From Blasia pusilla (lineage: Eukaryota): a DNA stretch of 64,000 bases. The stretch covers positions 3,100,001-3,164,000 of the forward strand of contig CM114271.1 in assembly GCA_050084515.1 (NCBI GenBank), in the 5' to 3' direction. A model generated the notes under the pieces. That model had not been told where the DNA came from. It was given only the letters and a program-made list of their open reading frames with translations, and did no database searches. Below, piece after piece: positions 4,401 to 64,000 of the stretch. Each line of letters opens with the position of its first letter. Positions within the stretch are counted from its first letter, which is position 1. The position numbers and the translations under genes are program-made.

Positions 4401-6494
4401 CTGCCATGACGATGATGTAACTCATGGAAGGCACGGAGCCGCGAGCAGCTAGTGTGGCTCCAACTTCTACCTCTTACCCTGACTCGGGTGAGGATCTCGC
4501 TAGTATGGGATTTATGTGTAGTGCAGCGGGGGCTGGTATTCTGGCAGGAGAGAGTAAGAGAGGAGAGGAAGAGAGGATGAGAGGAGAGTCTCTCTTAAAA
4601 AAAAAAGGGCCAAATCCGCCTCCTCTCTTCAAAACTTTTTGACATATTTGAATTTTTTTTTTGCTTTCAAATTCAAGAAATCTTTAGAAGAGAGTATTTA
4701 GTGGTCCACATTTGGCCCTAAAAAAACCTCCTCTTTCCTGGGGGCGAGAAAAAAGGAGACATCATAAGACCACCCTAAATATTTTTCCATCACTCTCCAT
4801 GTGAGCCTAAGTTTCTTAACATTCCTTGTCTCGGTCAACAAAAATCAGTGCCCTTGGTATTTTTGTTGGAGGACCACCCGGATGCCAACCTCTCTTTTTG
4901 CAGGGATTGTTGCCTGCATCATGGCCTCCCCTAAATTGCCCCATAACCAACTTTCTGTTGGTTATGAATGGTGTCTGCTCAAGACCAACTTTGTGAAATG
5001 TGAACACATCAGATCCTAAGGCTGAGAAACCGAGAAGCTGCACCCCTCCCAACCCGTAAGAAAGCTCACCATAAGAAAGGAAAGATTTTTAGAAGTGATT
5101 TTCTTCCACCCTGCACCCACGACGATCTAACAGGTTGGGAATCCGAAATGGCAATCCGACAAGTAGTAGGAATCCTGCACATCTTAGACAAGAAAAGAAG
5201 CCTACAACTGGTTTGACGAATATAGGGGAACGAGCCAAAAGTCAAGAAGCCCGCCACAATGTGTCAGAAGTTGGTCTCACCGGGATAGAGTCTGATCACT
5301 CAAGCAATCAACCTGTCGGAATCCGACAGGTTGATTGGAAATGGTAGAAAAGTTGCAGTGGGAAAAAGCAAAAAGTTGCAACCCGTCGGAATCATACGGG
5401 TTGCAGAATTGTAATTCTGAGTATCTAAAAGAACACAATCCACAAGTCCAAAAAAATATTCCATCAAACTTTTACAAACACCATTATGGGTTGAAAAAAT
5501 CTCGTCCTTTATTACCTCCGAAGGAACCTCGGAAATGTACATTTCACCTAGTCTATGATTTCTTCAGCCTCATCATCTAAAAATTTACTCCTAACTCTCC
5601 TTGGTGACAGTACCAAAGGAATGTCCTGGGATACAAGTGGCTCCTCTGGCCGATTGTAGACGGGGATCGAAAATGTTGGCGAATTCGAGAGCCTTGGCCC
5701 CCCCCTAGGTACACCATAACGGTCCCATATAACCTGTGTCGAGTCCCACCGCCTTCCTCGGCAGTATACCTTGTACGCTCTGCAATGTGACACCCATCCA
5801 GTATCAATAATTGCTCCGTCCCCGGTAATACCATTATGGCAATCGCACAGGTAGTAGGAATCCAACACGTCTGAGAGAAGAAAAGAAGCCTACGCTTTTT
5901 GCCTTTACGAGTTGAGGGAAGGTGCCAGGGAAGAATCCCGCCGGACTTCCTCTTAAGTTGGACCAACAGGAAAGAGTCAATCAGGCAACTGTCGGAATTA
6001 GACAGGTTGCCTGGAAGTGGTAAAAAGGGTGCAGTGGTCAAAAAGTGAAAAGATGCAAGCAAGAGAAATCCGACGGGTTGCAGTGGTCATAAAGTGAAAA
6101 GTTGCAAGCAGGAGAAATCCGACGGGTTGCAAAATAGAAGTCCATGAGTACATAGACGATCACATTGAAAAAGACAAAAATGTTCAAAGCAAACTTTTAC
6201 AAGCACCACCATCGTTGAAAAAATCTTCGCTTTATATCATCCGAAAAAAGCTCTGAATCAGTACATTTGATCTATTCTATGAAATTTTTGCCTCATCATC
6301 AAAAAACTCCCTACTCCAAACGCTGCAAATCAAGTGGGTCATTGAGTTCTTTGAACTCACTCGTCATCGTCGAGAGCTCTTGCAAAATTACTTTCGGCCT
6401 TGCCCTCCCGATTTTGGAATCGTTGGAAGTGACGATGGAGTCACTACCAAGGGTGGCTCTGGAACCGAGCTCTCGGCCGGTGGAGAGTTGTACG

Positions 6495-6755
6495 CTAACA
6501 ACGAGCCAGATTCGCCTTTGCCTCCTTGCAAAGGTCAAACAGTTCCTGCCTTCCCTCGAGGCAGAGAATGTTCCTGCCACTCTGCCAGGCGCCTTTGATA
6601 CTTGCCCCTGAAAGTCCCACTAAGTCGAACACCAAGTCACCCGGCCTTGAGCAGAGCTGGATGAGCATTTGCATCAAGGCTGGCGACTTTTCCCTTCCTC
6701 CCGAAGTCGGGTACTGTCTTGCATGTAAATTCCTGGGGGGAATTGTACAAACTAT
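6495..6755 (-). CDS. Beta-class N4/N6 DNA methyltransferase-like SAM-binding segment (motifs X-I-II, degenerate)
   Basis: Minus frame reads GREKSPALMQMLIQLCSRPGDLVFDLVGLSGASIKGAWQSGRNILCLE, cf. consensus KPxxLxxxLIxxxSxPGDxVLDPFxGSGTTxxAAxxxGRxxIGxE. No [DNS]PP[YF] catalytic motif found upstream. Confidence 0.6.
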   Translation of the reverse strand: MVCTIPPRNLHARQYPTSGGREKSPALMQMLIQLCSRPGDLVFDLVGLSGASIKGAWQSGRNILCLEGRQELFDLCKEAKANLARC

Positions 6756-6937
6756 CTAAGCTGTACCCATCTGAGCATGGATCCATAGGATCCTGGATCT
6801 TGAACACCAGGAAATTGTGCTCAGGCTGAACGAAGCAGTACATGTAGGAGTGGTCCATCTGTAAATCAACACGTTGGAAACAATGTCAGAAACTAAAGAA
6901 GTCGGCTTGACAACATTTTCAATAACTGACTTTGGAT

Positions 6938-7320
6938 CAACTTGTCGGAGTCCGATGGGTTGTTTTGTCCCGGACCAACCCGTCGCCTTCCGACGGGTTG
7001 GTCAGGGACTAGAAAAACCCGTCGGGCTCCGTTTTTTTTGTCCGTGAGCAACCCGTCGGAAGGCGATGGGTTGCTGGCCTAGAGCAGCCCATGCTCGCCT
7101 GAGAGCAACCCGTCGCTATCAGACGGGTTGAATCCGAAAACCAAAAGCAACTGTGAAAAACCAAAAGCAACTGCAACCCGTCGGGTTCTGACGGGTTGCA
7201 GGTACACCGCGGTTTTCCCTGTGTATCTGGGAAAGATGCAACCCGTCGAAAACCGACGGGTTGCTCTTAGCCGCATGGGCTGCTCTAAGCCAGCAACCCG
7301 TCGCCTTCCGACGGGTTGCT
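6938..7320. repeat. Cluster of GCAACCCGTCGG-N3-CCGACGGGTTGC palindromes in intron 6859-7435
   Basis: About 8 copies, at ~6938, 6976, 7016, 7048, 7105, 7174, 7238 and 7293. Confidence 0.9.
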
Positions 7321-9479
7321 CATGGAAAACAAAAACCCAGATTGACACTCATTATACTCACTCAACGGAGATGAACACTCATTATACACATCATTAAAAT
7401 ATAATTGAAATTATAGTACAGGAATTGAGCCTTACCCGAATCTGACTCGTCGCGGATCGGAGTGGGTACTCGTTTTTTATGATCCAAGATTGCGCCGTCC
7501 TCCACTTTAGCGACCTCTTGACGCACTGGAGGTTGAAGAGCTCGTCCTCGCTCCCTCCAGTCAACACCAAGAAGCAGCCCTGTCACTCGGATAGAGTCGC
7601 AAAGGAGAACAAAAGCGCACTGGTCATAAGAGAGCGGCACATTCCACTCGGTACCTCGTCCGACGGATTTCGCCCCAAAGTCGCAACCCCGAGGGCAGAT
7701 CGGCGATCAAGAGATCCACCGCAACCTCTTCGACCACTCCATTCACCGCCCAGGCAGCGTGCCCGCTTTCGTTGGAGCTTCCGCCCCAGCGTTGTCAATT
7801 TTTGATGGCTGGGTGTCGACGCTTGAGAATCGAAGCTCTTCACTCATCCAATAAAGGAGTGAATCAAGGAGGACGCTTGTCCGGTCGTTGTTTGTCTGTG
7901 TCTTCCCAAGGATGATGGATCAGTATTCTCCTTGGGACAACCCGGGCACCTCTCGCTTCCGCTTCTCCCTAGTCTGCGGACGGCTTGTCGGGTCTCTATG
8001 ACCTCGGACTGGTGGGGTTTTTTTCGCCGAGGACTGGTCCGACCCTCTCTCCCCCTTTCGTCCGAACGATTCCGCTGTGGCCTTGAATCTTCAGCCTCTC
8101 TTTGGGAAGACTCCGCCTCTGAATTTTTCCCTCCTGGCCTTGCCTTTGAGACCATTTGTGGATTTATCTTTGGTTGTGCGGACCTTGGAAGCCAACTCAC
8201 TGTGTCTCGTGGGCCTGCTCTTCTGCATCTCCTCGAAGAAGTCTTGATTTGGGCGAAATTGGGGTTGTCGACTTCACCTGAGGCCATTGCATCATGAAGC
8301 ACTCGTAAATCCTTATTGGTGATGTCTTCAGGGTCGTTGAAGTCGAGCCAAATGGGGCAATTCTCCACCTCCCAATCGGACATGTGCTGCCCCATCTCCA
8401 TGTCGCATACATGGAGAATGTCTCGCATCCGGCGAAGCCCACAATTTCAAGGCTACTGGTAATTTTCCCCACGTACCTGCATTCTTACATTGGACGAGGT
8501 ACTTGAAGACCATCCGTTGGGCAGCTTTTAGTCGAACAGAATCGGCCGTCTGCTCCTGTAGATCTCGCTTCTTCTTCGCTTGATCCCGTTTGTTCCCCTC
8601 TACTTCTTCGTCAAGCTCTGCCTGAGGGAGGACGCAAACCTTGAACATGGTCTTGAATCCTAGGTTTTTGGTTGGCTTGTCCCGGATGTCGTCGAGCCAA
8701 ACCTCGAAATCTCCAGAACTTTCAAGGTTTGCTTCATCCGGGATGGGCTCTAATCTTCTGAGCTCCGCTTGCAGACCGTCCAGCACGGACTTCCCGATAA
8801 CCCCGCAGCGGCCCCAGTAACGACCATTCGCCAGGTGCAAGATCATGGATCGGACACACCCGGAGGATGGTGTGCCGCCCTCTTCTGGGCCTCTGAGCCC
8901 TCGAGACTGATTTTCATCAGTCGGATCCTCCTAAACTCGCTTATGCCGGACAACGCAAACCGATGCACGCGATCCAGGGACACTTTCTCCCCAATCTGAC
9001 CATGCGGATCTTCATCCCTTTTCCGCCGGCGCTTGATAATCGCCTTCAGCTCCTTGTAGAACTCCGGACCAAGTTCGGGGTTGAGAATGCTGATGTATCG
9101 CTGCATCTTGCTCGCCGTGTATTTCGTTCTGCAGATCTGCAGCTTGATGAATTTCGCGCTCAGACGCAGATACCTTCTCCCTCCGCTCGGCTCGGTCGGC
9201 GCTTTTCTTGCGGCTTTGTATCTTCGACCAGCAAAGGATGGTTACGGCTGCATCTTGGGAAATAAACTTATTTGCCTAAGTTTTCTTTTTAATCTGAGCA
9301 CCCTCTGCAAGCATCTGATTGACAAGGGGATCGCCCAAGAACCCCCTGTACTCTCCCGGGTGTGTCGTAAGCACCTTCCTCACCCGATCATAGTCCTGGA
9401 TCCAGTGGTGGGTGACATTCCCCTCCGATACAATCTTGCACATCCAAACCCAACCCGTCAGGAAATTACATGGGTTCTT

Positions 9480-10020
9480 GCAACCCGTCGGACTCCGACG
9501 GGTCGTCACAGCTCAAGGTTGGATTCTAGCAACGAGCTAAATGATGCAACCCGTCGGAGTCCGACGGATTGCATTCAGATTTGCTAATGCCTGGTAAGCA
9601 AACCGTTGGAGTCCGACGGGTTGCTCGACTCGCCGCCTTATCAGGATGTTTTTTGAAGAATGCAACTCGTCGGAGTCCGACGAGTTGTTCGACTGACTGC
9701 AAGTTTAGAAGGTTTTTTCCCCAAAGCAACCCGTCAGACTCCGACGGGTTGATTTCGGCCAAAAATAGTTTCGAGGCAAGCAACTCGTCGGAGTCCGACA
9801 AGTTGCATTCTTCAAAAAACATCTTGACAAGGCGGCGAGTCGAACAACCCGTCGGACTCCGACGGTTTGCTTTGGGCCAAAAACTAATTAAATCCGTGGT
9901 CAATCAAACAACTCCAATCTGAAGTCGAGCAACCCGTCGGAGTCCGATGAGTTGCTTTCGGCAAAAACAAACCTAAACCATTCATCAATCAAGCACCTCG
10001 TCGGAGTCCGACGAGTTGCG
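9480..10020. repeat. Palindrome cluster, ~50-85 bp spacing, intronic
   Basis: Copies at ~9480, 9546, 9598, 9662, 9726, 9780, 9845, 9929 and 9993. Confidence 0.9.
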
Positions 10021-10040
10021 TAAGTGTTAAAGATACTCAC

Positions 10041-10495
10041 GTGCTCATGGCATGCATTGCCATCTCCACCGTCGCCATGTGATGAGGGAATGGGTGAAGG
10101 ACCACTGCCTCCAATGAGTTGGGCCGCTCCTCCGCAAACTTGGTCCACGCCATGAACCTATGATTTCCATCCCAGATGAAGAAATGCAGATTCCTCATCC
10201 AGCTGAATTCCGTGCCCTCAACTTGCCTTCTGAAATCCTGGTCTCGCATCCTCCAGAATGTGTCGAGCTTTTCCAAGTCCTCCTCCGTAACCAGAGCTTG
10301 GGTTCCATGCTCGTCGTAAGGCTGAACATAGAAGGGAGGAAAGTTGTCGACGTAGGATGCTGTCGCCGCCGATTGTTTAAGCTTCGCGATGTCCTCGTCG
10401 GACTGAATTTCGCGGATGTATTCCATTGTCCGCAATCGGCAGAGTGGAATCCTCGGGGCGTTGTGGCCCTCCATGAGTGCCATCTGCTTTACCAC
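10041..10495 (-). CDS. ParB/sulfiredoxin-like domain exon
   Basis: RIPLCRLR...IREIQSDEDIAKLKQS...FPPFYV...FFIWDGNHRFMAW follows the ParB-N/Srx pattern ending in hhhDGxHRhxA (~10145-10185). Confidence 0.65.
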
Positions 10496-11589
10496 CTGTA
10501 AGAACCGGGACAAGATGAATAAGCTACACTGAATTCCCAATGAATTGCAATTCACTGATCCTCTCTTACTCGCTCGAAAATGGGGTCGGTTTCTTGACCA
10601 ACTAACTTGTCTGAGATAGAAGCTGGAAAATCGACTGGGAACTCGTCGATCCGATAAAGGTTGATGTCCTCCGCCGGGCTTGGAGTCGAGAATGACCGCT
10701 CTCCGGCTTCTTCGGCCATGTCCACCATCTCCACGCTGGCGGTCCTCATGACCTCGTCGTCATCGATTTCAACTTCTGGCGTTTCCACTATGTTGATTGT
10801 GTCCCCGGACTTTGTGGGGGACATTTCCCGCATCTCAACACTTGCGGCTGGACGGGCTGGGCTATCGTCAATGGCTATCGCTTTTTCCCTCCTCGCTTTA
10901 GCCAATTCTGCCCTCCTCACCGACGCGTCCAGACGCTTCTTTTCTCTCTTTTCGTCGGCGATCCTTTTCTTCAAGGCCTGCGACGTCTCAGCCTCTGACG
11001 TTCTATTTATCTAGCGCCTCTTGAACACGTCTCACAAGAAGCACTTGGTTGTGCATCTCCGCTTCCCTTTCCCGCTCCTCGATTTCCTGCTGCCTAATTT
11101 CATTCGCCGAACAAGGCCCAGGAGAAGCTGACGCAGGAGTCCTAATGGACTTCGGAGTGAAGCTCCAAGACTTGTTGGCTTGTGATTTTTTCCTCGTCAT
11201 TTTTTCCGGAAATGCCTCCACCTATGTCCACGACGAATCCCTTGATCAGTCGCCTTGCTGATGTCGAGATGGGGAGCTCGAATCGCCTTGATGGGTAGCT
11301 CGAATCGTCCCGTGATCGCTCTGTCGAACCGTCTCGCTATCGTTCGGTCGAACCATCTCGCTCTCGTTCCCTCCTATCGACTCGGGATGTGTCGCCGTGT
11401 GAAATGCCCCTTCATATCTGATCAGCTGTTGCGCGGGAGTGTGAGGAATGAAGATCGCGAAATGAGAAACCGGAAATGAGCGATTTCTGCCCTATTTATA
11501 CTTTTCTAGCCGTTGGGCTGACCGTTGGGTCCCATCGTCCTTTCGACGGCGACGTGCCGGATGTTACGGAAGTCCGGACGTGAAAAATG

Positions 11590-12172
11590 GCAACCCGTCG
11601 GAGTACAACAGGTTGCGCGGCTACGCCATCCTGGGTACGTCGCCACATGCGCGAGCAACCCGTCGAAGACCGACGCGTTGAGCGCCTCCGTTGTCTTCGG
11701 AAAAGAACGCGAGGTACCCCCGCAACCCGTCGGAGACCGACATGTTGCGCGCCTCCGCCGTGTTTGGGACGGGAACGGGACGTATCTTGGGCAATCCGTC
11801 GGAGACCGTTGGGTTGCACGCTTCCCTCATCAAGGGTTAAGAACGAGGGCTTCCCGTGCAAGTCGTCGGAGTCCGGCTGGCTGCACCATAAGGCGAGGCC
11901 CTTGCGCAACCCGTTGGAGGGCGACGGGTTGCACGCCTCGCCGTCTTTGGGCAAAAAGGTGAGGCACCCGTGGAACTCGTCGGGAACAGACGGTTTGCAC
12001 GCCTCCGGCATCTTCGGGCAAGAAGGAGGGGTATCCGAGCAACTCGTCGGAGAGCGACGGGTTGCTCGCTTCAAAAATGTTTAGCAGAAGCGTGCAACCC
12101 GTCCGATGCCGACGGGTTGCAGGCTTCGGTTAGCTTCGGGTAATTTTTCAGTTAACAGGACTCCGACGGGTT
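11590..12172. repeat. Palindrome cluster, ~65 bp period, in the region between the divergent accessory and transposase genes
   Basis: Copies at ~11590, 11655, 11722, 11791, 11857, 11906, 11973, 12039 and 12094, plus a half site at ~12160. Confidence 0.9.
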
Positions 12173-12912
12173 CCAAGTGCGATGCGCAACCCTCTGCTTC
12201 CCAAATCCGGTAACATATTGCAACTGAATTGAATGTGTCCGCAGGTGGATCCATTGTGTCAGACAATGTCACCCACCGAATTCATCTTGTCAGTAAAAAT
12301 CTGTCAGGAGTATCTGTTTCCTATTCACTATAAATTAAAAATTCTCATTCTCAGTCTCCTTACGTTGGAATCTTCTTGGAATGGATAATTATGTTAAGCT
12401 CACTTGTGGCAGTCATCTGGCGGCCCTTTCTCAATCAGAAATCATTCGACCCCAAGCTCGTGAGTCTTTCATAGCAGTGGATGAAAATTTTTTCTGCATT
12501 CGATTTCTTCTCCAATTGGAACCATCTTTGTATCCAAAGATGTTAGGGTGGACAGTTTGGAAGACATAATAGGTGAGACAGTCCAGCCGGTGACCTCGAC
12601 TGACCGTAAAGTATGGAATCTCCTACCTCTAGCAAATGGTCAATATAGAGTTTACGGCCGCCCCGATCGTCTGTTTCCCAAGTAGACGGTCTAGAATTTC
12701 CTAGTGCTCCGAGCTCCACGTTTGCAACTCCAAGCTCTGCAGATCCGGCCGACCAACCATGACGCTCGAACAATGTTGTTCTTCTTGAAGAGATTCCGGA
12801 TGTTATCAACCTCGGCTGGATCCGCTTCGGACACCAATCGGGCCCTCTGTCCGCCTACTCGTTCCTCTTGCAAGTATCAGGCAATAGTTTGCTTTCGTCT
12901 CTGGCCTTGAAA

Positions 12913-15900
12913 ATGTTCAAGCACATTCTTGTCGACGAGCTGACGCCCATGTACGATGGTAATTGTATTTTTGAGTTGCCTCCACTTGCAGCTCCTGCTC
13001 AAAAGAAGGATGGAGGATGCCTGAAGGGTATGGACAGAAAGTTTGATTGTCATCGATGGTGCAGGCTTCAACGGACCAGTGCTTCAATTCCACATGGTCC
13101 TTGGATTGTCTCCCGCCACCAGTGCGTGGGAGCCTTGGAGTGTAGAAGTCCAGCATACCCGTATCTAGAGCACAACGGGCGAGTCAATACGTCGCAAAGC
13201 CCGGAGTGATCAAGCTTACAACGGCATCACAAATTTGTGAACAATTGCTTGGAATCCCTGGACAGGGCGAGATCACGGCGGTTGAGGAGAAACAACTCTG
13301 GGAGAATCTCTCATTTCTCGCTGATCCTGAATGCTTCCGGAATTTGCTGCGTCAAATACGAGTTCTGGATGGAAAGACGGCCGAAATGGATGCCATCGCC
13401 AGAATCAAGGCCAACTCCAGATTTCCATTCATTCAGAGATGGCAGTTCATGGGCCAAGGAGGCGAGGGATCCAGGGCCTATGTCTTCAAAATGTCAACCA
13501 CAGGTCCGTCGAGTGGCCTCGATCTTATAGATCGAATGAGGGAAGGGGAAGATCTTTACGGGAGTTGGGTAAGCTTTGATATTTGCAACAGAGTGTTGAA
13601 CGGATGGTTGACGATGGGTGCTCACGTTTATGACCATGTGGAGAAGGGACTCAAAACTATATTTGTCTGTGAAGTAAAGGCAGAAGACGTTGGCAATTTG
13701 AAGATGTGTTGGTTTCTCTTATTGGAGGTGGTGAAGGAAAACAAAAGGCCACCTCTGGAAATTTATGGGTTCATGGCGCACAATGCACAACCTGGGTGGA
13801 TTGCTATCCGGGAAGTGTTCTAGGGTGGAGAGGTTCAACCGGAGAGGGAAAGGTCGGATGCTTTCCATTGGCAACAGTCTGTGACCCGGTACACCAAATC
13901 TTGCATCAAGGAGAATAAGAGTACAGAGCATGTGACTCTACTCCAACGCTGCAAGGATAGCAAAACCTTGAAGCAGGCCATGGAATGCCAGGAATAACTT
14001 CATGGGTGGTGGAGGAAGCATGCGATTGAGGGGAAGTACAAAGAGTTGTGCTCTTGGTTGAGTTGGTGGACTGTACGTGTGAGACAATGTGGAAACTTCA
14101 TGCGGCAGGTGAGTTCACTATTTTGTCTTGTCAAGCTCACGCTGAGAATTGTTTGTAAAGTTGAAGCTCAGGGTGAGAAGCGTGGGAATTATATGGATTT
14201 CAAACCCAAGAAACCAAGCAAGCTGTCGGATGCAACGGGTTGCCCGAGTGTGCAACCCGACGGAAACCGACGGGTTGCCCGAGGGTGCAACCCGACAGAA
14301 ACCGACGGGTTGCCCGAGGATGCAACCCGACAGAAACTGACGGATTGCATCGAGATTTTTGGTGCAACCCAAGTGTGCAACCCGAGTGTGCAACCCATCG
14401 GGACCCGACGGGTCACAGAGTCGTTCATGGGATGCCTCGGCCTTGCAACCCGTCTGGTTCCGACGGGTTGCAGTAGGTGGGTTTAAGGTTACAACACGAC
14501 GGAAACCGACGGGTTGCATCCAGATTTTTGGTGCAACCCGAGTGTGCAACCCGAGTGTGCAACCCGTCGAGACCCGACGGGTCACAGAGTCGTTCATGGG
14601 ATGCCTCGGCCTTGCAACCCGTCCGGTTCCGACGGGTTGCAGTAGGTGGGTTTAAGGTTACAACACGTCGGGACCCGACGGGTCGCAGAGTCGTTCATGG
14701 GATATCTCGGCCTACAACCCATCCTGGTTCCGACAGTCGCTTATTTCTTTGACTCTGAGTTATTTTCGTTCCCTTCTAACATTGCCGTCATTGCAGGGAT
14801 TGAACGTTTATGAAAATGCCCTCTGCCCCAACACAAGTGGAGCAGAAAGTGTTCATTCCTCTTGGAGGTTGTCACAAGCATGCCAACGAATTTCACTTGT
14901 GGAGGCATGCCAACAAGACCAGACAAGAGCAATGCTACTGATCTGCAAACATCCCATATCTTCCTCACAAAAGGCATAACAAAAGGAAAGGGGCCGTCGA
15001 TCACGAGCTCTATGTCGTATGGTGTGAGATCCGGGTGATGAAAAATTGTATGTGGAAGCCTTCAACCGGTGCGTAGCTGGAACTCCACTCGAGCAAGACG
15101 TACACATTGGTGGGGATATTCGTGGGCGGGTTTCAAGACGTCTCATACAGATGGTGGTAGAGCAGTCTGAGCGAGACTCGTGGAGACCATATAAGTATCT
15201 TGACTTCAGGCAGGTGAAGAGGCAGCATTGAGGAACGAATCCGGTGATTGATTTGGATGAGGAAATTACGCTGCCCAGGTATTTGGGGACCCCGGACCCG
15301 TCCCAAATCCGTGATGGAGTTACTTCTCCAAAATCAGTGAATGTTTTATTTCAAAAGCCCTCCGTTGTTGGAAGTTCGCAACATCCTGTCATTGGGGTGG
15401 TTCAACAATATGGGATTCCGGTAATGGAGGTGGATTGCAACCTAAAACGGTGGCATATATCTCGGAGCAACCCAAGACGTGGACCCACCTGCAGGGCAGC
15501 ATCTGATGGCATTAGAAGAGCATGCGGCACTTTCCTAAATAAGAAGTGTACAAGGATTGGACGACCACTGCCTGGGTTTTGGGGACTCAAAACCTTTGAT
15601 CGTTTCACGAGGACCGGGGATCAATTGAAGTACTTCTTCTGCCCAAATGAATCTTGCGCTTTCCGGAACTCTTATCCGGCTGCCATTGGAGCTCAGGAAT
15701 ACCCCACGATTTGGCCCATCGCCGGTAGGAAGCGCACTCAAGACAAGTGGACAATCTTACAAGTGCGATTTCAAACTCGTAGAGATGGGGAAGTTCGGAG
15801 CATGTTTGCATTACAGAGACCCTCGCATTTCGTATTCATCCCAAGATTGATGTCAACATGTACCCGGAGAAGGTGGATGATCTCAATCCATTATTTCTGT

Positions 15901-16292
15901 TTGAGTCTAGAAATGGGGTGAAGAGAAACAGAATGTGCAAAGCCAACGGTGGAGAGCAAAGCGAATTGCGTGCGGCTCGGGAGGCAAAAATGGAGATCAT
16001 CGCCACGAAAGATGTCTTGAGTGGCAATGGAATAGGAAGGATGTATTGGGTCAGGAACAACACTGTAAATTCAAGTGTCACAGGGGTGTATGTGGTGCAC
16101 ATCTGTTGCTTTCCCACATGTTCATATGATGACTTTGTCCAAAGAGAGACAAGTGGCAAAAGGTATTTCCCTTGTAAGCACATGTACTATGTGTTGCAGG
16201 TAGTTTTAAGAGAGTCGGAGGTAGGAGTAGGAATCCACCAACCAATTCTGTCCCTCAAAGAAGTTCGAAGTATTTTAAACAAACCACTTTGA
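12913..16292 (+). pseudogene. MULE-type DDE transposase with N-terminal Cys-rich (GCM-like) region and C-terminal SWIM finger, spliced
   Basis: WVSFDICNRV (D1); GFMAHNAQPGWIAIREVF (D2 position reads H); DAFHWQQS (CxxH-equivalent); NTSGAESVHSSW (E) after an in-frame GT-AG intron 14109-14796 with CTAAC branch site; PTCSY...FPCKHMYYVL (SWIM) ~16115-16195. Contains stops and frameshifts. Confidence 0.8.
14230..14740. repeat. Palindrome/half-site cluster with a ~179-bp tandem duplication inside the transposase intron
   Basis: GCAACCCGACGGAAACCGACGGGTTGC variants; 14345-14520 is repeated at 14520-14700. Confidence 0.85.
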
Positions 16293-17699
16293 GGATGCAA
16301 AATGAGGTTTTAGATTGTACTTTTATTTTTTTCTCAACCTTCACTTTGAGCTTGAACTCTATTCAGCCCTGGGCAAATGATAGATTTTTCCCAGACCTTG
16401 GATGGAAAAAGTGATTGGTTCCACACTTATTATTCCACTGATTTTTCAATTTTCTAAATTTTGAGCAATTTGCAACTCGTCGGACTCAGAGGGGTTGCCA
16501 AAATGTGGAAGAGGAAAAAAAAACTGTGGGACTGCTTCATATATGAACAAAAAAGTGCAAAAAATTTCGAACAAAAATTTTCCTCTCTTCAACCTGACGG
16601 AAACTCTCTTCAAAAAAAAGTATTTATTTCGGTTGAAGGTAGTTTCCTCTCTCCTCTCTCCTCTCTTCCTCTCCTCTTACCGCACCTCTAGTGCAGCCCA
16701 GGTTGAGGTTGCTGCAGTGGCGACCCGGTGTGCTGCAAGAGGCACCAAGCCATTGAGAGGTGGAGTTGAGATTGACCCACCAAAGGGGACCGATGGGCGG
16801 CAGGCCAGGGTTCCACAGTCATTCACATTTTCGGAGGCACTACACACACCATCAATGGTGCCTCGACGACCAGCGGTGCCTATAGCTCAGGCAGGTACGT
16901 CAACGTCACAAGGAGTTGGAGTGACAACTCCTATGCGAGATCAAGTGGAGTCAGTGTTGGAGGTAGCCGCTAGAGTGAGTTGGCATCCGCTATTTTTCGC
17001 CATAGAGTTGGCAACATTGGGAGTTGGACAGCTGAGGTGTTCCGGCTGGCCGCCACGTTGTGTGAGAGTGGAGTGATGACTGCTTCTTGTTCAAAGGTAG
17101 TTGAGGAGGTGGTGGACTTGCCCTCAGAGCCCGTGCTCGGGACGTTCCCCACAGAGTCATGGCACGCGGCGGCGGCGGCAAAGTTGGTAGACATGCGAGC
17201 TCGACTGGCCATAGAGCGAGTAGTGGTGACACTTGGAGTAGTATTACTGGATAACCGAGCTGGAGTATTTCGCTTGGTTAGTCTCACGGGGACAGTATAC
17301 CACCCAAAGCGCGTCCTACTTGATTCGGGAGCGCAGCCCTTGATGTTAGGGAAGGTGCCGTGTTTAGCATTGGGGTTACAGAAGGCCGACATTGAGCCTT
17401 GTCCCTTCTAGATACATACCTCGATTGGGGGCATGTCACCCACGTAGTATATGACTTGACAGGAGATAATTGTCAGAGTCCAGCGAGAGCATGCGACGGA
17501 TAGTGCTATGATACGCACACGTGCGATTACGACACCAGTTGAGTCGTACGATGTGTTGGTGGGGAATGACGCGAGAGCTATAGAGGAGTGTGGACGACCT
17601 CGTGAGGCAAGCATGGAGTCATGCCTTTATCCCGGAGTAGTGAGAGTCTGGTGGCAATCGGGTCGTGGAGTGGAGACGTTGACCCCACTGGATACCACA

Positions 17700-18680
17700 C
17701 CCGTTGTGTGGCAGTGTCTAGAGGAGGGTGTTAAGATGTTACATCTCTTCGGAGGGATTAGCAGTGGATTGGCCGCAGTATTGCAAGCGGGCATACGAGT
17801 GCATCAGTACCTTTATGTGGAGAGAGATGAGATTGTGCGACAAGTATCACTATGTCACGTAGCGAGATTGGTCCAAAGGTATCCTGAATTGTTGTTGGTA
17901 TCTGCAGTACGGGGATATCAGCATACACTACCGCCGACATCTCTTTGGTGGGGGCGCAGGATCTGGATAGAGTTGGCACCATTCATTTGGTGATTGCTGG
18001 ATGGCCAGGTCAGGGTCATTCATCAGCTGGCTGAGGATTTGGATTGCAGGATCCGAGGTCAGGGATGTTTGGGAGATGCTAGGAGTAGTACGACACTTCC
18101 ACGAGAGTCAGACATGTTCTCAAGCGTACATTTTGGAGAACATGCCGTTGTTGGGAGACACTCGTGCACGTGTGATGACGAGGGTGCATCTGGTGAGGTC
18201 CTGGTTGGGACCTGCTGTGTTGCTAGATGCAGCGAGAGTTGGGTCACGTGCCCATCGTCCACGACTATGGTGGACGAACCTGATACCATCAGAGGTACTG
18301 AGTCGAGCATATGATGGAGTCCAGAGAGCACCACATCTCACAGTGGATGCTATTTTGGGGTCAGGGCGTCGATCTCAGGTGGTCACGCGGGATGATGGAC
18401 CACCGTTGGCGATGGCCAAAAGGGTGGGGGAGTTGAGGGCAACCTTATCTACGTTGGTGAGCTTCCCAACATCCCATGCCTTTCGTCAGGGAGGGCCATG
18501 CATGATTTGGGATGAGGTGACCAGACCATTGGAGGAGCCTATAGCAGATGAGCGCAAGTGCGCCATGGGGTTTGCTACCGTACTACGGCGGTGGCAGGGA
18601 TGACTGAGGCATCCCAAGACACGTGTTGGGGGAGGCAATGGACCTCAACTGTCTCACATGGATAGTCAGCCTAGGTATGG
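17700..18680 (+). pseudogene. DNMT3-like C5 DNA methyltransferase domain of G1 (frameshifted; catalytic PC reads PG)
   Basis: Motifs MLHLFGGISSGL (I), GWPGQG (IV, ~18000-18016), YILENMP (VI), SRAHRPRLWWTN (VIII), LGEAMDL (X). Confidence 0.85.
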
Positions 18681-22062: not shown

Positions 22063-23539
22063 GCTTCGCACCTGGCGGTTCCAACTGTCCGATAGAAATC
22101 CAATGAGTTCCTCACCAAGACTCGCATGAAGTGAATCTCGGGTTGGAATCCAAGTGTGGCATACAAAGTCCACTCCCTTGGATCAGGTTTGGGTTTCGAG
22201 TTCCAACGCCAAACTCCCGTTCCATCCCGTGCCTTTGAAATGCCGTTTGGCGCCCAAAGTGGAGATTCGTGTTCCGAGACATCTCGGAGAGACTCCTCCC
22301 TTACTAGTACTTCTAGGGATCTCCGGGGGCCCCCTACGTTTAGGGAAAGATACCTGGGCCTCTCCAATTGGCCCTCAACCCGATTGCTCTCCCAGTAGTT
22401 TTCGGCCAATATCTCAGCTTGTACTTATGCGTTTGCTCAGATCTTTGGCGCGTTGGAAGCGTCTCAAGATAAGATTTCCAATGCGCCCTTAATTTTCCCA
22501 AATCCATCTTGGAGCTCAACGTTATGGTCCTAAACACAGTCAGATTCTCCCAAACGCTAGTCGTGTTCCAAACTGGTTCTCACCTCTTTGGCAATCAACC
22601 TCCCAAGACTCAACTCATCTCAAGTCTTGGCTTGCGTTTGGTCTAGGTTTCTTGGTCGCAACCACTAACACATGAAAAGCACAACTCTGTTCCGCGTTTC
22701 GTCTCTTAGAATTCTCCAAGAGACCTTTCCAAACGCCTCTCCAAAGCGCAAACCTCGCAGCGTGAGTTCACTTGAGTTCTAATGTTTTGCTTGGCGCCTA
22801 TTTGGTGTTGTTTGGTTATGAGGTCGCGACACTCACCCCTCCTTAGAAGGTTGATGTCCTCATCAACGCAAACCTTGTTGATGTTAAGTTTTGGGAAGCC
22901 AACCCCTTAACACTGAATCGCATTCTGGTAGCTAACCCGCAATTCCTCTTTTGGCTTAAGTCTTAGCTTGTTGCTTGCAGCACTTAGAATTATTAGCTTA
23001 TTCTCTTCGATGAGCCTGGACCAATTCTACATAACTAATCTAAACTATCAAAATAAGCTAACTAAGTCTGCAACCTAACACTCTACTCACTATCTGTAAA
23101 CAACCGCCTGTCTACCTAGCCAACTCGTATTACTTTTGGGTCACTCGTATTCCACTTAGGCGCGTCACTAAGTTCACTTATGCAACATGAATGAGATCAC
23201 CACAAACCCGAAGACAGACTAATCTGCCCCGCCGACGTTAGGGCGAGCCCAAATGCTAGTACTTCAACACTTGATCCTGATCTAGATGCCTTATCTGAAT
23301 ACAAGCTCTCACCTCAAATACTCATTGTTTGGCCTCCTTGACTTACATTCTAAGCATATGAAGAACTACTCATTGCCATGCACTACCAAACCCAAAATCA
23401 CAATCATAAACATTGAATCTCCAAATCCATGCCTTCTTTATTGCAACAACTAAACATTTCTAGTTACAACCGGTTATCGGCCCAAGCTTTCCGATCACAA
23501 GTTATGTCCTTTGCTTCACCGTGTACTAACTCACGTGCC

Positions 23540-23700
23540 TATCTTTGCGATGCTTCTTGCGCGTGTTCAAGATCTGCCTCCGCAATCCAAGTCGCCTCTT
23601 TCACATGGTAGCCTTTCCACTTGACCAAGTACTCGTACTTGGTGGCTCTACGTCTAGAACGCATAATGGTCTCAACCTCAAACTCTGGTTCCTCATTTCT
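23540..23700 (-). CDS. Chromodomain at the chromovirus integrase C-terminus
   Basis: EPEFEVETIMRSRRRATKYEYLVKWKGYHVKEATWIAEADL. Confidence 0.9.
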
Positions 23701-25425
23701 GATGATCGGTTGTGGTCTCAACATCATCCTTCGCTCTGGACGCACATCGTCTTGAAGACACTTCTTCAATAATGACACATGGAAAGTCGGGTGAATCTTG
23801 AACTCGTTTGGCAGCTCCAATGTGTACACATCCTCAAACGGCTTTGCCTTGATCACATACGGTCTAGCATACTTGGCTGACAATTTTGCGGACAATTCCT
23901 TCGGAAGAGTGAGATTCTTTACACTCAACCACACTTGTTCCCCAACTTGGAAACTCACTTGGCGCCGACTTTTGTTAGCATGCTTCACATACCTTAGTTG
24001 AGCCTTGGCAAGACTTTTCCTCGCTCGCTCTTGTTGTTCCTGCATTTCCACTAACAAACATTCCGCTGTTGCTTGACGAGTGTGTGCCGATGTAGCGCCC
24101 CTAAATAGAGCTAAGTCAAGAGGCCCTTCTGGTTCTCTTTGATACGCCAGAAGAAACGGAGATTCTCCGGTTGCAGAATGCTTAGTCGAGTTGTAACAAT
24201 ACTCAGCCATACTTAGCCACTTGGCCCAATCTCTTTGGTCTGCACTCACATAATTCCATTAGTATTGGTTTACGACCGAGTTTAATTTTTCCGTTTGCCC
24301 ATCCGTTTGAGGATGGAAGGCCGTACTAAAGTTGAGTTTGGTCCGGAACCTCCTGAATAGATGTTTCTAAAAGGCACTGGTAAACTTCGGATCTCTATCG
24401 GACACAATGCTCCTAGGCAATCCGTGAGCTCGCCACCAACCATCTAGGAACAGTCGGGAAGTCGTGTAGGCTATCGCAGACTCTCTCGTCGGCACAAACC
24501 TCCCCAACTTGCTTAACCGATCAACTATCACAAGTATAGCATTGTATCCCTCATATTCCAGAAGACTCGTAATGAAATCCATGCTAATGCTTTGCAATGG
24601 TCCCTCCGAGATTGGCAAAGAATGAAGTAAGTCTTGTTTCTTTGCATAAGAAACTCTGTTCACTTGACAGGTCACGCAGGTTTTCACATATTGAGCAACA
24701 TCTTCCTTCATGTTGGGCCAGAAGAACCTTTTGGCCAAAACAGCAAGAGTGGATTTCTCCCCTTTGTGTCCTGCCAAAGGTCCATCATGACATTCCACAA
24801 ACACCTTGGTCCGTAGCTTGCCTTGGCCTACATAGATCATGCTCTGCTTAAACCTTAGCAAGCCGTGCCTCAAACTCACATTGGCCACCTTCTCGCCCCG
24901 CTTTAACTTCCCAAGGTACTCCCTCGCTTGCGCATCCTTCATGTATCCTTCCCGAATCCTTCTTTCCAGGTCTGTTTCATTAGGGAACATTGCTCTCAAC
25001 ACTTGTGTCGTCGATGGCATATGCTCATCCCTACAACTTAACGCATCTGGAATGACATTGTCTTTCCCCGGCATGTGGATTAGCTCCACATTTGTCAACG
25101 CCAAGTTATCATGCCATCGAATTTGCTTTGGTGTTACGCGATCCTAGGTCTCAAAATACTTGAGCGATATGTTATCGGTGAATACTCGAGTCTTATGAAG
25201 TCCCTCATAGTGACGCCACTTCCTCAAGCAGTGAACCACCGTGAACAACTCTTTCTCATGAGTGGGCCATCTCCTTTCGGTGTCGCTAAGCTTCTTGCTC
25301 TCGTATGATACATGTCTTCCTTTTTGCACCAACATTCCTCCAATCGCGAAATCACTAGCATCCGTGTGCACCTTGAAGGGTTGGTCAAACTCCGGCAGCT
25401 TCAAAATTGGTTCCTGCGAAAGGAT

Positions 25426-27212: not shown

Positions 27213-30200
27213 TTGGTCATCACAGAGCTGTCTGGTGGTCTGGTTGGAGACCGTGGTGTGGACAGTGGTGGTTTCACACGGAATGGATTGAGGTATCGGC
27301 TACCTTTTCCACTTCCGACGGTTGATGAAGAGGAGGACGAGGGTGTTCCAAACACCGAGTCTTCCACGTTGTTATCAAGTGTTGCAACTCCATTGATTTG
27401 GGACATGGACGGGATATATGGGGCCATGAAGGTCCCACGATAATACTCGGGTGCATTGGGCACCATTGAGTTGGAGGACTTCATGCAGGAGTTTGATACG
27501 TGATGTGATATGCAGATGTTGTGGAACGCCACGTTGTTTACACCCTTCTTGGCTTGGAAGGGGTTGTTTCAGCATTTGGAGGGACCACCCATGGATGATT
27601 ACCATGAGTTTAGGAAGGACCATGTTGCTGAGATTGAGGCGTGGAGACAATATTGGTGTCCAGGCTATGTGTCTATCACCCATGGTGGTATTGGTAGTAG
27701 TGCTCCTACTATGCCAGCCAGCCCGACGTTGAGTGGTACGAGTACGAGCCGGAGTGGGGGTACCAGTGGAGGTACTCATGGAGGTACCAGTGGGGGTACT
27801 AGTGCCCCACCATCATTCACCCCGGTTGTAGAGTTCTTCAAGAGGTTGAAAAAGAACTATCAGGGAGTGAAGACAAAGAAGTTGACGAGTCTTCAGAAAT
27901 TTGAGCAAAAGACTGGTGAGAGTCTTCGTAAGGCATACACTCGTATGCGACGCTTGATTTCAGTTACCCATGGTGTGACTGAGGCTCAGGAAATCCAGTT
28001 TTGGTATGGGATCTTGGATAGAGAGTTGCCCCGCACGGTACGTGATGCTACTCTTATGAGTGATGATTCACCCACATTGACCCATGTGTTTGCTCTATCT
28101 GAGAAGATTGAGCTTAACATGGTGAAGGAGAGAGTGGTGACATCCACATTCAGTTGGGATATAACGACTACTTCTCGTGTTCAGCAGCCCACCTCACAGT
28201 CTTGTAGTAGTGGTGGTGGTAGTAGTAGTGGGAGTCGTGGGGGGTACACACGACCTCAGTCAGGTCCTAGAGGGACACTTGCGTAGAGACCATTGCCTTC
28301 ATTTGCTGCCCCGCAGCAAGGACAGTCATGTTGGAGATGTGGAGGTGATCATGTTAGGAGGTTTTGTCCCCAAGAGGATGGGAGACGGACTTTGGAGGAT
28401 GGGCCTCAGTCAGCCCCAACTCAATGTGATCATTGCGGGAGACCAGGTCATCCTCGAGAGCGTTGCTTTGATCTTCATCCAGAGTTGAGATCATGCCGCG
28501 GCCGTGGTGGAGTAGCTTCGAGAGGCCGAGGTGGTAGGGGTGGTAGAGGTGGATCTGTGGTTGGAGAGCCTACGGTGGCTACCCCTACCACTTCGACAGA
28601 GTCAGCTATGGCTGCCATGATTGAGCAGTTGGAGTAGAAGTTGGCTACTATGGCTGGTATCCAGCATAGATCAGGTTTGGGAGTAGGGGCTTCCACCTCT
28701 TATGGAGGGGATGATCTCTCTTATATGGCGAGTGCAGTACAGGTTGAGGCATCAGTTGGAGTTACGAGAGGAGTCACTCGAGCGTCAGAGCCACGTGGTG
28801 CTACTGTGGAGTTGGACCCACAGAGGAATGAGGTTGGGAGGCAAGCTAGGCTTCCCCAGTCATTCTTGTTGTCTGAGGTGCTTAGGACTCCATCCATGGT
28901 TCCTACACAGCCTATTGAGCCGACAGTGGGGAATGAGGCATCTACATCGCGTGTAGTAGACACGGATGCAGCATCCAGTGTAGTATTGCGGATGGCAACT
29001 TCAATGTTGGGATCCCCATTTTTTTCGGCCACGGAGCTGATGGCTTTAGGAGTTGACTTAGCTCCCGTATTTCAGCTAGCAGCCACGTTGTGTGAACGTG
29101 GGGATGTTACTGCTACACGTGATGAGGTGGATAAGGGTATTGCGGTGGAGCGACCCTCTATGTCAGGAGTAGCATGGAGTACCAGTGCTACTTGGCAGGA
29201 AGCAGCGGCGAAGATGGATGCATTACCAGCCCGGCCTACCATTGATCGTGAGAGGCTTACACCTGGTGTATGTATGTTGGACAACCGGAGTGGGATATTC
29301 TGATTGGTGAGTCCTACAGGACATGTGTATAGACCAGATAGAGTCTTGTTAGACTCTGGTGCCCAACCTTTGATGTTGGGAAAGGCGGCATGTATTGGTT
29401 TGGGTATTCGGAGGTTAGAGCTTGAGCCTTGCCCATTCCAAATTCAAACATCACTTGGAGGAGCCAATGATAGGTCTCAATTCATGACACCGGAGAAGTT
29501 TTCTGTGCCGTTAAGACTAGATCATGTGGCTGATAGCTCCCGGTTGGGAGTACCTGCAATGGTCACATCAGCCGAGTCGTATGATGTAGTAGTTGGAGGA
29601 GCAGTATTGTATCCAATGGGTTTTCAGATGGATTATTGGACTAAGATAGCGTCTTATAGACCTGGTTGGCAGTCCGGGGATGGACGTATGAGCCAAGTTC
29701 TTGTGAGATTTATTTATGGGGCTCGACCAGGAGGGTCTTCCCCAACGGTGTTAGCATCTGTGGCTGGTTTTAGTAGAGAAGTCACTTGGCCATGAGACTT
29801 TTTGGAGGGTATTGTTTCTACTATGGATTCTCCTATGCATGAGGAGGTAGAGGAGGTCCCTAGTTTTGCAGCAGTGGCATCCTCATTGTTTGATGTGCCA
29901 CTTGGGAGTTCAGGCGGTGCACTACGGCAGGAGGCTGATCGCCTAGTGCAGGAGGCTTGGTGTGAGGTTGTTATACCTCACGAGGAAGAGGACGCCCCAC
30001 ATCGGACTCCTACTTCTAATCCATTTGGGTTATCCCCTTTGGATACTACACCCATTGTATGGCAGTATTTGCCGGAGGGCATTTGTGTGTTAGATCTCTT
30101 TTGTGGGATTAGCACTGGTTTGGCTGCATTGTTGCAAACCGGTATTCGTGTGCGGAGATACGTGTATGTGGAGCAAGATGAGATGGCCCATAGAGTCTCA

Positions 30201-33200: not shown

Positions 33201-34403
33201 ACTTACTCCTTGGTCAGTATTGGTGGCGTGGCATGCATACTCAGGTGCAGCAGTTGGTGTCACATTGTATGGTTTGTGACCGGGTGAGGGCATCATTCAA
33301 TGCCCCTACACCACAGTTACACCCCTTGCCTATTATGGGGTTGGATTACCGTTGGAGTGTGGACTTTGCGGGACCTTTATCGTTGACTGTACGACATCAT
33401 CGATATGTGTTGGTGATGGTGGAGCACTTCTCTAAGTGGATTGAGTTGGTGGCATTACTTGACAAGGCAAGTGAGGGAACGGCGTATGCGTTTCTTGATA
33501 GAGTGCTTAGTCATTTTGGTGCACCACCAAGTGAAGTCGATCGACGACCAGGGTCTGAGTTTGGGGGGTAAGTTTCAGGTCTTGTGTGACAAGGCGTTGA
33601 TTGATCATCGAACCATGTCTCAAGATCATCTAGAGGCGGATGGTTTGGTTGAGCATGTGATTCAGACGGTGAAGAGGGCATTGCGCAAGTATGGCCTACA
33701 AAAGGGGCATCTTGGAGACTGGAATATTCAGTTGTCATGGTTAGCCATGGGGTATAGGTTTAGTCGCCAAGCATCCTTGGCTTCCTTCTCACCTTATTTT
33801 CCGTTATACGGCCGAGATCCAGACTTGCCAGCATCAATTTATCGGGAGTCTAGTGAGGTGGTGAACCTTGATGACCCAGAGATGTGGATGAGAGTGTGTT
33901 CTCAGCGGGCAGAGTTCTTTCGGAGAGTTATGCCAACAGCCTTTGAGAATCTTGCCATTGCTCAACAGAGGGATACGTTACGGTATGCAACTATTCAGGG
34001 AAGAGGTTATCGACCATCGATTCGTAGGTTCCATGTGGGGGACTATGTCTATTTGTAACAGATTGCACCGACAATGTTGGATGTGACGGCAAGACGCACT
34101 ATTTTACGAGTGCGAGAGGTGTTAGCTTCTGGAGTTCTCATGTTGGAGGGTCGTGATGGAGTTGTTTGGAAGGACCATGTGCGTAATCGTGCGTCATGTC
34201 ATCTTCCAAATGTGGATGGTACTGTTGACCCAAGCTTAGCCATGATACGTGCTAGCTTGAGATGCATGTTGAGTGGGTCTGCTGGTAACGCAGCCCGTAT
34301 GTCGGTGTGTGATCGGTGTTCTAGGGGTTGGCACATGATGTGTTTGACTCCACATATGGATGTTGTTCCTACTGGAAGGTGGGTTTGTCCTCGATGTACT
34401 TAG
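27213..34403 (+). pseudogene. G2 gag-pol polyprotein with embedded methyltransferase
   Basis: Gag with two knuckles (28293-28637); protease VLLDSGAQPL (~29340); MTase (30060-31050); RT (FSTLDLRAGYHQL, LPFGLKNAP); RNase H (SSYEGECLAVVW); integrase (H-H-C-C, WSVDFAGPL); PHD. About 11 single stops and 2 frameshifts. Confidence 0.95.
30060..31050 (+). CDS. DNMT3-like C5 cytosine methyltransferase domain of G2 (catalytic PCQ intact; one internal TGA at 30657)
   Basis: VLDLFCGISTGL (I), YVYVEQD (II), DLVIVGWPCQG (IV, 30357-30365), YILENVP (VI), SRAHRPRLWWTNLLP (VIII), ERERMMGFATGVT (IX), RRHVLGQAMDL (X). Confidence 0.92.
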
Positions 34404-63779: not shown

Positions 63780-64000
63780 GTATAGCTATTAGATGTTACT
63801 CTATCATTTTGGGGTATAGTTCATGGGTGTACTAGAGGAAAGAATAAATCCTTAACATCGATAAAGATGGATACAAGGAAAGACTTCTGGAAAAGGCATA
63901 TGTTGAAAGGGAAGGCATTCACTTCGAGGATATTTTCTCACTAGTGATAGAGATTACATCCATTTTCATATTTCTAGGCACAATAGCTCTCTATGACCCA
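63780..64000 (+). mobile_element. Eroded Copia RT N-terminal fragment
   Basis: Translates GYKERLLEKAYVEREGIHFEDIFSLVIEITSI, cf. Copia RYKARLVAKGYxQxEGIDFxEIFSPV. Confidence 0.6.

Follow-up and report, generated by a model that had tools for sequence, protein, structure and literature searches.

The 64,000-nucleotide stretch of the Blasia pusilla genome analysed here (contig CM114271.1, positions 3,100,001 to 3,164,000; hereafter the window) contains a multi-exon gene on its minus strand, extending over about 4.5 kb from approximately 11.0 to 6.5 kb. One of its exons encodes a domain that, judging by structure prediction, almost certainly has a genuine ParB/sulfiredoxin (ParB/Srx) fold. A previous reading of the locus made from the letters alone (the sequence-only reading) had described this exon; the rest of the gene was absent from it. 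The gene is positioned head-to-head with a plus-strand gene (13146-16289), and arrays of a 27-bp palindrome lie in and between the two. ParB-type proteins are site-specific loaders and cytidine triphosphate switches of bacterial chromosomes and plasmids. Apart from that of sulfiredoxin, hardly any role of the ParB/Srx fold in eukaryotes is known to have been characterised. The ParB-like exon and the sequence upstream of it are arranged as follows.

10041..10495, minus strand: exon of the ParB/Srx-fold domain (IPLCR ... [DE]GNHR), based on sequence, splice signals, homologues, fold and conservation
10496..10569, minus strand: putative 74-nt GT..AG intron, phase 0, which joins the upstream exon in frame (sequence reading)
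10570..11010, minus strand: predicted low-complexity charged exon (open frame; start not fixed)

The ParB-like exon is read from 10495 to 10041. It is preceded by the acceptor ...ttcttacAG (10497-10496), its first base is 10495 (GTG GTA AAG...), and the donor GTgagt begins at 10040 (GT at 10040-10039), which leaves 10041 as the last exon base and gives the exon a length of 455 nt. The acceptor at 10496 and the donor at 10040 named in the sequence-only reading agree exactly with these signals on the minus strand, and every peptide quoted there was recovered in the translation, which holds IPLCRLR, REIQSDEDIAKLKQS, PPFYV and FFIWDGNHRFMAW, and ends with FFIWDGNHR. The open frame that it placed at 10037-10555 has to be corrected to 10037-10759, from stop to stop. 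The donor is in phase 2; in the unspliced sequence the split codon is closed by the next base and TGA follows at once. The upstream frame (11010-10555) ends with ...PIFER at 10570, where GTaaga begins, and removal of the 74-nt intron would keep the frame into the acceptor. A Pfam search of the upstream exon gave no match; the N-terminal regions of the long homologues described below are of low complexity too.

A word-index search of 5.8 billion proteins matched the ParB-like exon to P0001 (E 6.9e-13), P0003 (1.5e-11) and P0002 (2.4e-7), and the motifs IPLCR and FFIWDGNH are common to all four sequences. A profile calculated from these four sequences retrieved 758 representatives of clusters at 50% identity at E≤1e-3, including 337 at ≤1e-10 and 55 at ≤1e-30. 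Because of the three database matches, the common motifs and the 758 profile relatives, the exon is no chance frame. The homologue clusters are fragments in the main. Counting only the 88 stored homologues that extend as far as the end of the profile, 57 terminate no more than three residues from it. Such a common end would be expected if many of the relatives were single-exon predictions cut off by one shared intron, and could also result from the profile itself ending there. In these sequence searches, the family is large (758 clusters at 50% identity) and invisible to the sequence profiles of Pfam.

An alignment of the exon with 56 homologues (n = 57) was the basis of an AlphaFold2 model and of the conservation counts. 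The model reached a mean predicted local distance difference test (pLDDT) score of 87.2 and a predicted template-modelling score of 0.80. A Foldseek search of the PDB returned, among the matches listed to rank 50, Noc, sulfiredoxin, ParB, KorB, PadC, SbnI, Atu1540, Pfu-392566-001 and the free serine kinase, all of which we take to be of the ParB/Srx type; sulfiredoxins occupied ranks 2-11, and the best E-value in the list was 2.5e-3. The VIA scan, which is independent of Foldseek, covered 48,161 PDB chains and gave Z≥2 for only 15, the first 13 of which are, judging by their titles, of the ParB/Srx type. The top match was KorB (Z 7.5, root-mean-square deviation 2.4 over 91 residues), followed by Arabidopsis Srx (6.5), PadC (6.3), pNOB8 ParB-N (6.3), human Srx (6.0), the serine kinase (5.8), Atu1540 (5.6), SbnI (4.8), SspE (3.1), Spo0J (3.0), BrxU (2.9), Osa (2.5) and a Dnd protein (2.1). 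In the library of viral structures (BFVD), the best match was a protein of Cafeteria roenbergensis virus (CroV; E 6.1e-4), and many phage proteins named 'ParB/Sulfiredoxin' followed. The model and the scans of the PDB thus returned the ParB-N/Srx fold that had been proposed from the sequence.

The signature element of the model is formed by a strand (residues 105-109), the GNHR motif (110-113) and a helix (111-120). The motif DGNHR, on whose conservation the sequence-only reading had relied, is near-invariant as [DE]GNHR in the 57 sequences (D/E 55, G 53, N 57, H 54, R 52). IPLCR is similarly kept (I/V 57, P 55, L 57, C 56, R 49), and W117 is present in 56 of the 57. The insertion of about 45 residues that had been noticed before the DGNHR strand is visible in the model, since 141 residues (12-152) cover 96 residues of KorB (52-147), and an additional hairpin and two helices are located between strands 55-58 and 105-109. 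The only Pfam families matched more than twice across the 57 members were DUF1015 and DndB (three members each, weak matches), which we take to be families of the ParB clan. A search of NCBIfam gave nothing useful.

Downstream of the ParB-like exon, the gene was traced with four long homologues (570-1191 residues), which matched no Pfam family anywhere, including their middle region. Comparison of long homologues of 864-1191 residues with the window by tblastn gave colinear matches at 10504-10043 (ParB-like), 9434-9180, 9217-8864, 8732-8406, 8383-8264 and 7746-7666. Twelve metagenome loci (L001-L012) were obtained with the ParB-like domain as the query, and tblastx against them added a further colinear match at 6746-6621. 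The following parts of the gene were recognised.

9279..9434, minus strand: next homologous exon (VSEGNVTHHWIQDYDR...), which ends at an in-frame TAG (9278-9276); tblastn
8864..9139, minus strand: exon ...YISILNPELGPEF...VSLDRVHRFA..., in another frame; tblastn
8264..8732, minus strand: middle-region exons (AAQRMVFKYLV...; MSDWEVENCPIWLD); tblastn, E 3e-5 to 4e-5
7666..7746, minus strand: motif-IV-like stretch VAVDLLIADLPSGL with a degenerate DPPY, aligned to residues 931-960 of P0064
6498..6755, minus strand: last exon, with the motif-I region of a beta-class amino-methyltransferase (...PGDLVFDLVGLSGAS...), based on Pfam, the PDB and colinearity with L001-L004

The last exon gave a match slightly below the cut-off to the Pfam family N6_N4_Mtase (PF01555), with an E-value of 2.3e-5 over profile positions 165-220 of 221. 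Its best matches among PDB sequences were the beta-class adenine methyltransferases M.RsrI (E 0.0017), DpnA (0.0077) and CcrM (1.6). In the motif-IV-like stretch (7746-7666), VAVDLLIADLPSGL of the window is aligned by tblastn with VAVDCLFLDMPSGL of P0064. The order of the ParB-like domain followed by motif I, about 3.4 kb apart, recurs in the metagenome loci L001-L004. A Pfam search of the C-terminal parts of P0064 and P0102 gave no match, and a word search for longer proteins with the last exon found none. Because the tblastn and tblastx exons are colinear and the last exon matches PF01555 and the PDB methyltransferases, the predicted layout of the protein is a ParB-like N-terminus, a middle of about 600 residues of unknown fold, and a C-terminus similar to beta-class amino-methyltransferases.

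The copy of the gene in the window looks decayed because it contains an in-frame stop, a splice phase that cannot be closed, and insertions and deletions relative to RNA reads. The stop (TAG, 9278-9276) lies within sequence that is aligned to homologues on both of its sides. The ParB-like exon ends in phase 2, and no in-phase AG would close a GT-AG intron before the next exon; the sole acceptor that preserves the homology is in phase 0. Frame shifts recur farther down the gene, and part of them may be short introns. Three RNA runs labelled with this species supplied raw reads, of which 33, 47 and 63 could be placed on 7000-16000; 141/143 were 95-99% identical to the window and 2/143 at least 99%. 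The reads contain single-nucleotide insertions relative to the window at 7649 (3/3), 7669 (2/4 and 3/4) and 7882 (3/3). We conclude that the window copy is probably non-coding. We read the RNA as low-level transcription of related copies with 95-99% identity; alternatively, the reads may come from a divergent strain.

The 27-bp perfect-type palindrome GCAACCCGTCGG-NNN-CCGACGGGTTGC is present in 34 copies in the window (up to two mismatches per arm), and all 34 are located within 5308-16498, while 50 block shuffles of the sequence gave no copies. The arrays have a period of about 64 bp and occupy two introns of the ParB-methylase gene, the intergenic region and a confirmed intron of the neighbour gene.

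5308..5404, no strand: palindrome array
6975..7319, no strand: palindrome array, six copies, between the methyltransferase-like exons
9479..10021, no strand: palindrome array, nine copies, period about 64 bp, in the intron just downstream of the ParB-like exon (repeat and palindrome scans)
11655..12120, no strand: palindrome array, seven copies (nine at a looser setting), between the divergent genes
14218..14686, no strand: palindrome array in the intron of the neighbour gene
16472..16498, no strand: palindrome at the right edge of the segment
5308..16498, no strand: proposed extent of the element (about 11 kb), with both genes and all 34 palindromes

The open reading frame (ORF) of a long terminal repeat (LTR) retroelement begins at about 16465, and its part 16465-17076 resembles 28638-29303. 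Inside the intron of the neighbour gene, the palindrome units also make up a 169-bp repeat unit (14317-14654; 2.2 copies, 93% identical). The metagenome loci L011 (2505-3609) and L012 (7062-8416) contain 23-24 copies of a 15-bp palindrome, TGGTTAATTTAACCA, directly upstream of the ParB-like exon of a distantly related gene (up to three mismatches, period of about 30 bp; mean of 0.3-0.6 and maximum of 4 copies in shuffled sequences). This palindrome is unrelated to the 27-mer of the window. Since L011 and L012 are about 92% identical, they represent one independent case. L012 also contains a 25-bp tandem array of 61.8 copies at 792-2325.

Two parts of the neighbour gene on the plus strand were delimited.

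13146..14104, plus strand: first long exon of the neighbour gene, interrupted in this copy by two stops in frame (TAG, 13821-13823; TAA, 13995-13997), based on sequence and RNA
14105..14792, plus strand: GT..AG intron of the neighbour gene, with the palindrome array 14218-14686, based on spliced RNA reads

Four reads (one from run X3 and three from run X5) splice 14104 to 14793 at GT..AG borders. In the reads, position 13822 is G instead of A (6/6) and position 13995 is G instead of T (13/13), and both stops become sense codons. Therefore, the neighbour is a real, spliced gene, of which the window copy is also broken. It may encode a transposase; its ORFs matched no Pfam family. We presume by eye a MULE-like D...E pattern and a SWIM-like cluster of Cys and His residues (15783-16289), for which no tool gave support, and a single-sequence AlphaFold2 model, in which X replaced the two stop codons, was too poor to be used (pLDDT 42).

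The remainder of the window contains numerous retroelements. A Ty3/gypsy-type LTR retroelement on the plus strand (27504-34058) carries a C-5 cytosine DNA methylase (PF00145, E 1.2e-9, 29796-30659), which is followed on this strand by reverse transcriptase, RNase H and integrase, and similar ORFs at 16465-18603 and 44574-48618 represent partial copies of this element. Methylase-bearing retrotransposons are known from a few algal lineages. Additional pieces with gypsy-type integrase or reverse transcriptase and copia-type RVT_2 are located at 1-1591, 23539-25143 and 35280-36155 on the minus strand, and at 38714-39847 on the plus strand. Positions 36-1423 match 51655-50276 in inverted orientation with 87% identity. 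The G+C content falls sharply to 0.26-0.35 at 58000-64000, compared with about 0.5 elsewhere in the window.

Based on the layout of the gene, the predicted fold and the palindrome arrays, a function of the protein can be proposed. On balance, we favour the explanation that the exon encodes the N-terminal ParB/Srx module of a long protein with an end derived from a beta-class (N6/N4) methyltransferase, that the protein is of the accessory type published for giant DNA transposons of algae, and that the window holds a decayed copy of its gene. We infer that the IPLCR / [DE]GNHR pocket would bind a nucleoside triphosphate (NTP) at GNHR, as in ParB, KorB and Noc, that the protein would recognise the palindrome arrays of its own element, as ParB does parS, and that it would then act in cis on the DNA or chromatin of the transposon that presumably carries it. 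The methyltransferase-derived module may bind DNA or S-adenosylmethionine rather than methylate, because its motif IV is degenerate throughout the family. The role of an NTP-dependent clamp or nuclease, put forward in the sequence-only reading, is likewise conjectural. It is possible, but doubtful, that the analogy extends to a complete eukaryotic, transposon-borne ParB/parS system. In such a system, the 27-bp arrays would be parS-like loading sites, from which the protein would spread along its own element in an NTP-dependent manner, and the methyltransferase-derived module would mark or shield the element. The palindrome would have co-evolved with the protein in each lineage of elements, giving the 27-mer in the window and the 15-mer in L011 and L012.

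Several observations weigh against the explanation that we favour. The only Pfam match of the exon, to DUF1015 (E 0.0095), is below the cut-off, and ParBc (PF02195) was not matched at E≤1 by any of the 57 members among the matches listed (25 of the 28 families). A profile search of PDB sequences with the 57-sequence alignment gave nothing real, only a spurious match to eL24. The structural scores are middling, as no Foldseek match in the PDB had E<1e-3 and the Z of 7.5 falls in the range that the scan tool flags as common; we nevertheless accept the assignment because the ParB/Srx fold is the only fold that turns up. A helix-turn-helix, a C-terminal dimerisation domain and a ParA partner were not identified, and the middle region is without a Pfam match in the long homologues. 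At the methyltransferase-like end, the PF01555 score of 24.9 bits is 1.8 bits short of the cut-off of 26.7. The canonical motif IV is (D/N/S)PP(Y/F/W), and the ParB-linked methyltransferases of prokaryotes and phages keep DPPY or SPPY. PP(Y/F) is missing from all four versions seen here, which are DLPSG in the window, DMPSG in P0064, DVPFG in P0102 and DILDG in L001-L004, and motif I (GxSG) is partially preserved in the window and no longer present in L001. Because of the non-canonical motif IV and the loss of motif I in L001, we make no claim of methylation for the module. Palindrome arrays were absent from L001-L004 and L009, with hairpin scans of L001, L003 and L009 showing nothing comparable to the window, though these loci carry just 0.7-3 kb of upstream sequence. 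The search for element ends found neither terminal inverted repeats nor target-site duplications, and the long-repeat search of the window gave only retroelement matches and short palindromes. Pfam recognised no transposase family in 36 ORFs of the window and the loci, and seven ORFs from the neighbour gene gave none either at a limit of E≤10. The RNA depth over the bins of the ParB-like exon was 0.4-1.0, derived from non-identical copies, with all first mates on the plus strand, and no splice joint of the ParB gene was present among the reads of the three runs. Of the description 'transposon cargo' given in the sequence-only reading, the part that stands is its plausibility from the context and from published analogues; a transposase family that would have anchored it was not found by Pfam in the adjacent ORFs.

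The domain might instead belong to the DndB / DUF262 branch of NTPases (GmrSD, SspE, BrxU), which sense or nick (modified) DNA, and would then not be a sliding clamp loaded at parS-like sites. The paired motifs QR ... DGQHR/DGQQR known from this branch are similar to IPLCR ... DGNHR, and DndB is one of just two Pfam families matched repeatedly (3/57, best E 0.066). The VIA list includes SspE (Z 3.1), BrxU (2.9) and a Dnd protein (2.1), and the list of viral structures includes 'Sulfur modification' and 'DNA-sulfur modification-associated' proteins. These Z-scores of 2-3 are, however, well below the 6-7.5 of the compact ParB, KorB and Srx cores, Pfam scans of the long homologues revealed no nuclease domain (HNH, DUF1524), and the palindrome arrays fit site-specific loading better than an action of the DndB/DUF262 type. 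We consider this alternative unlikely. The high ranking of sulfiredoxins in the structural comparisons (Z 6.5 and 6.0; Foldseek ranks 2-11), together with sulfiredoxin being the classic eukaryotic member of the fold, could indicate a redox enzyme. The position of the catalytic Cys of sulfiredoxin (GCHR) is nevertheless occupied by Asn in 57/57 sequences, the domain is fused into a protein of about 1000 residues with a methyltransferase-like end, and the family is multi-copy and decaying, which makes a redox function hardly credible.

It is also conceivable that the gene is a domesticated host gene, with the palindromes belonging to an unrelated intronic satellite or a miniature inverted-repeat transposable element (MITE). 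The window searches found no transposase family, terminal inverted repeat or target-site duplication, the gene model has ordinary GT-AG introns, and the arrays lie in introns and intergenic DNA, like introner- or MITE-type repeats. Against a host gene stand the stop and the broken frames of this copy together with the transcription of near-identical copies, a picture typical of multi-copy families, and the mostly fragmentary nature of the 758 clusters at 50% identity. All 34 palindromes (34/34) are confined to the segment with the two genes, the rest of the window is crowded with retroelements, and the published relatives are transposon-borne (PMC12477816); a domesticated gene is accordingly improbable in our view. 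An endogenous viral fragment, left behind by a large DNA virus or virus-like element with a phage-type ParB-methylase gene, appears more improbable still. The best viral structural match is the Cafeteria roenbergensis virus protein (E 6.1e-4), proteins of Bodo saltans virus, Gaeavirus, Orpheovirus and Marseillevirus are in the same list, and ParB-linked methylases typically occur at the packaging loci of phages (PMC4738411). Yet the gene contains spliceosomal introns, the ORFs scanned by Pfam include no capsid, polymerase or packaging gene, and the viral structural matches reflect the fold in general (template-modelling scores of 0.4-0.5).

The family, with its methyltransferase-derived module and lineage-specific palindrome arrays, could reveal the means by which giant DNA transposons distinguish and handle their own DNA, which has so far only been suggested in print. 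For annotation, the gain consists of the structural assignment, the diagnostic motifs IPLCR and [DE]GNHR, and a warning about the degenerate motif IV. The value of this particular locus is modest because the copy looks dead.

The fold and the strand-GxxR-helix phosphate-binding element of the domain are those of the clamps KorB (8qa8), ParB (6sdk, 7bnr) and Noc (7ol9), and the palindromic repeat array beside the gene is reminiscent of the parS or OB sites of bacterial and plasmid ParB-family clamps. Unlike these clamps, the domain has GNHR in place of GERR at box II and the insertion of about 45 residues, and it is encoded by an intron-containing eukaryotic gene; the helix-turn-helix, C-terminal dimerisation domain and ParA partner of a ParABS ParB were not identified here. 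The DndB / DUF262 NTPases with DGQHR/DGQQR belong to the same superfamily, have similar paired motifs and gave sub-threshold DndB matches, but their structural Z is just 2-3, and no associated nuclease domain was found here. The association of a ParB-like domain with a beta-class amino-methyltransferase is shared with the ParB-linked N6_N4 methyltransferases of prokaryotes and phages. A review by Iyer et al. in BioEssays links beta-class methylases to phage ParB-terminase loci (PMC4738411). We regard the prokaryotic and phage enzymes as the likely ultimate source of the fusion; the present protein differs from them by its middle of about 600 residues of unknown fold. The eukaryotic clades described in the available sections of this review do not include the ParB-methyltransferase layout seen here.

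Accessory genes of giant eukaryotic transposons, to which the gene described here would belong, offer further parallels. Among them is the fungal DUF3723 gene (PF12520), which is conserved in Starships and whose function is not known (PMC9156397). In language-model features, the ParB-like regions of P0064 and P0093 lie beside DUF3723 clusters (score 0.96; 16/30 named matches), and ParB_N is weaker (0.90). HMMER found PF12520 in 0/152 stored homologues (E limits of 1, 10 and 0.01), and a literature search found no paper that pairs DUF3723 with ParB. We treat the link as a lead only. The same domain may be the unrecognised core of the Starship DUF3723 genes, and if this is true, ParB-like 'self-recognition' proteins would be a shared feature of giant eukaryotic transposons.

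In red algae, according to a preprint on Bostrychia, the Plavaka transposon protein PAG3 combines a ParB-like domain (HHpred, best match 7BNR) with a 2-oxoglutarate oxygenase, PAG2 combines a PF01555 methylase with SET, and tandem inverted-repeat arrays beside the PAG3 gene were proposed as binding sites (bioRxiv 10.1101/2025.02.11.637652). The ParB-like N-terminus of PAG3 is visible only by remote or structural methods, as here, and 7bnr_A is also in our Foldseek list. The PAG2/PAG3 set also includes a methylase of the PF01555 type, and inverted-repeat arrays adjoin the ParB-like gene in both cases; the ParB-like domain and the methylase of PAG3 and PAG2 are on separate proteins with other partner domains, whereas they are fused here. 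Accessory proteins with ParB-like and DNA-methylase domains are in print both for Sola1 of Ectocarpus and for transposons of green and red algae (PMC12477816; bioRxiv 10.1101/2025.02.11.637652), so that the statement that such domains are rare in eukaryotes apart from sulfiredoxin was too strong. The present gene joins this published, uncharacterised class, and the class itself is not new. In the 21.5-kb Ectocarpus element Sola1-1_Ec32, the gene for the accessory protein of 1104 residues is on the strand opposite the transposase (PMC12477816). The window differs from Sola1-1 in that no Sola1 transposase was recognised in the neighbour gene, motif IV has degenerated and the copy looks decayed. 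The Sola1-1 protein has the layout predicted here, a ParB-like N-terminus and a C-terminal N4C/N6A-type methyltransferase in about 1000 residues (PMC12477816), and in both cases the gene is opposite to the strand of its neighbour, within a giant DNA element invaded by retroelements in Ectocarpus and a putative one in the window.

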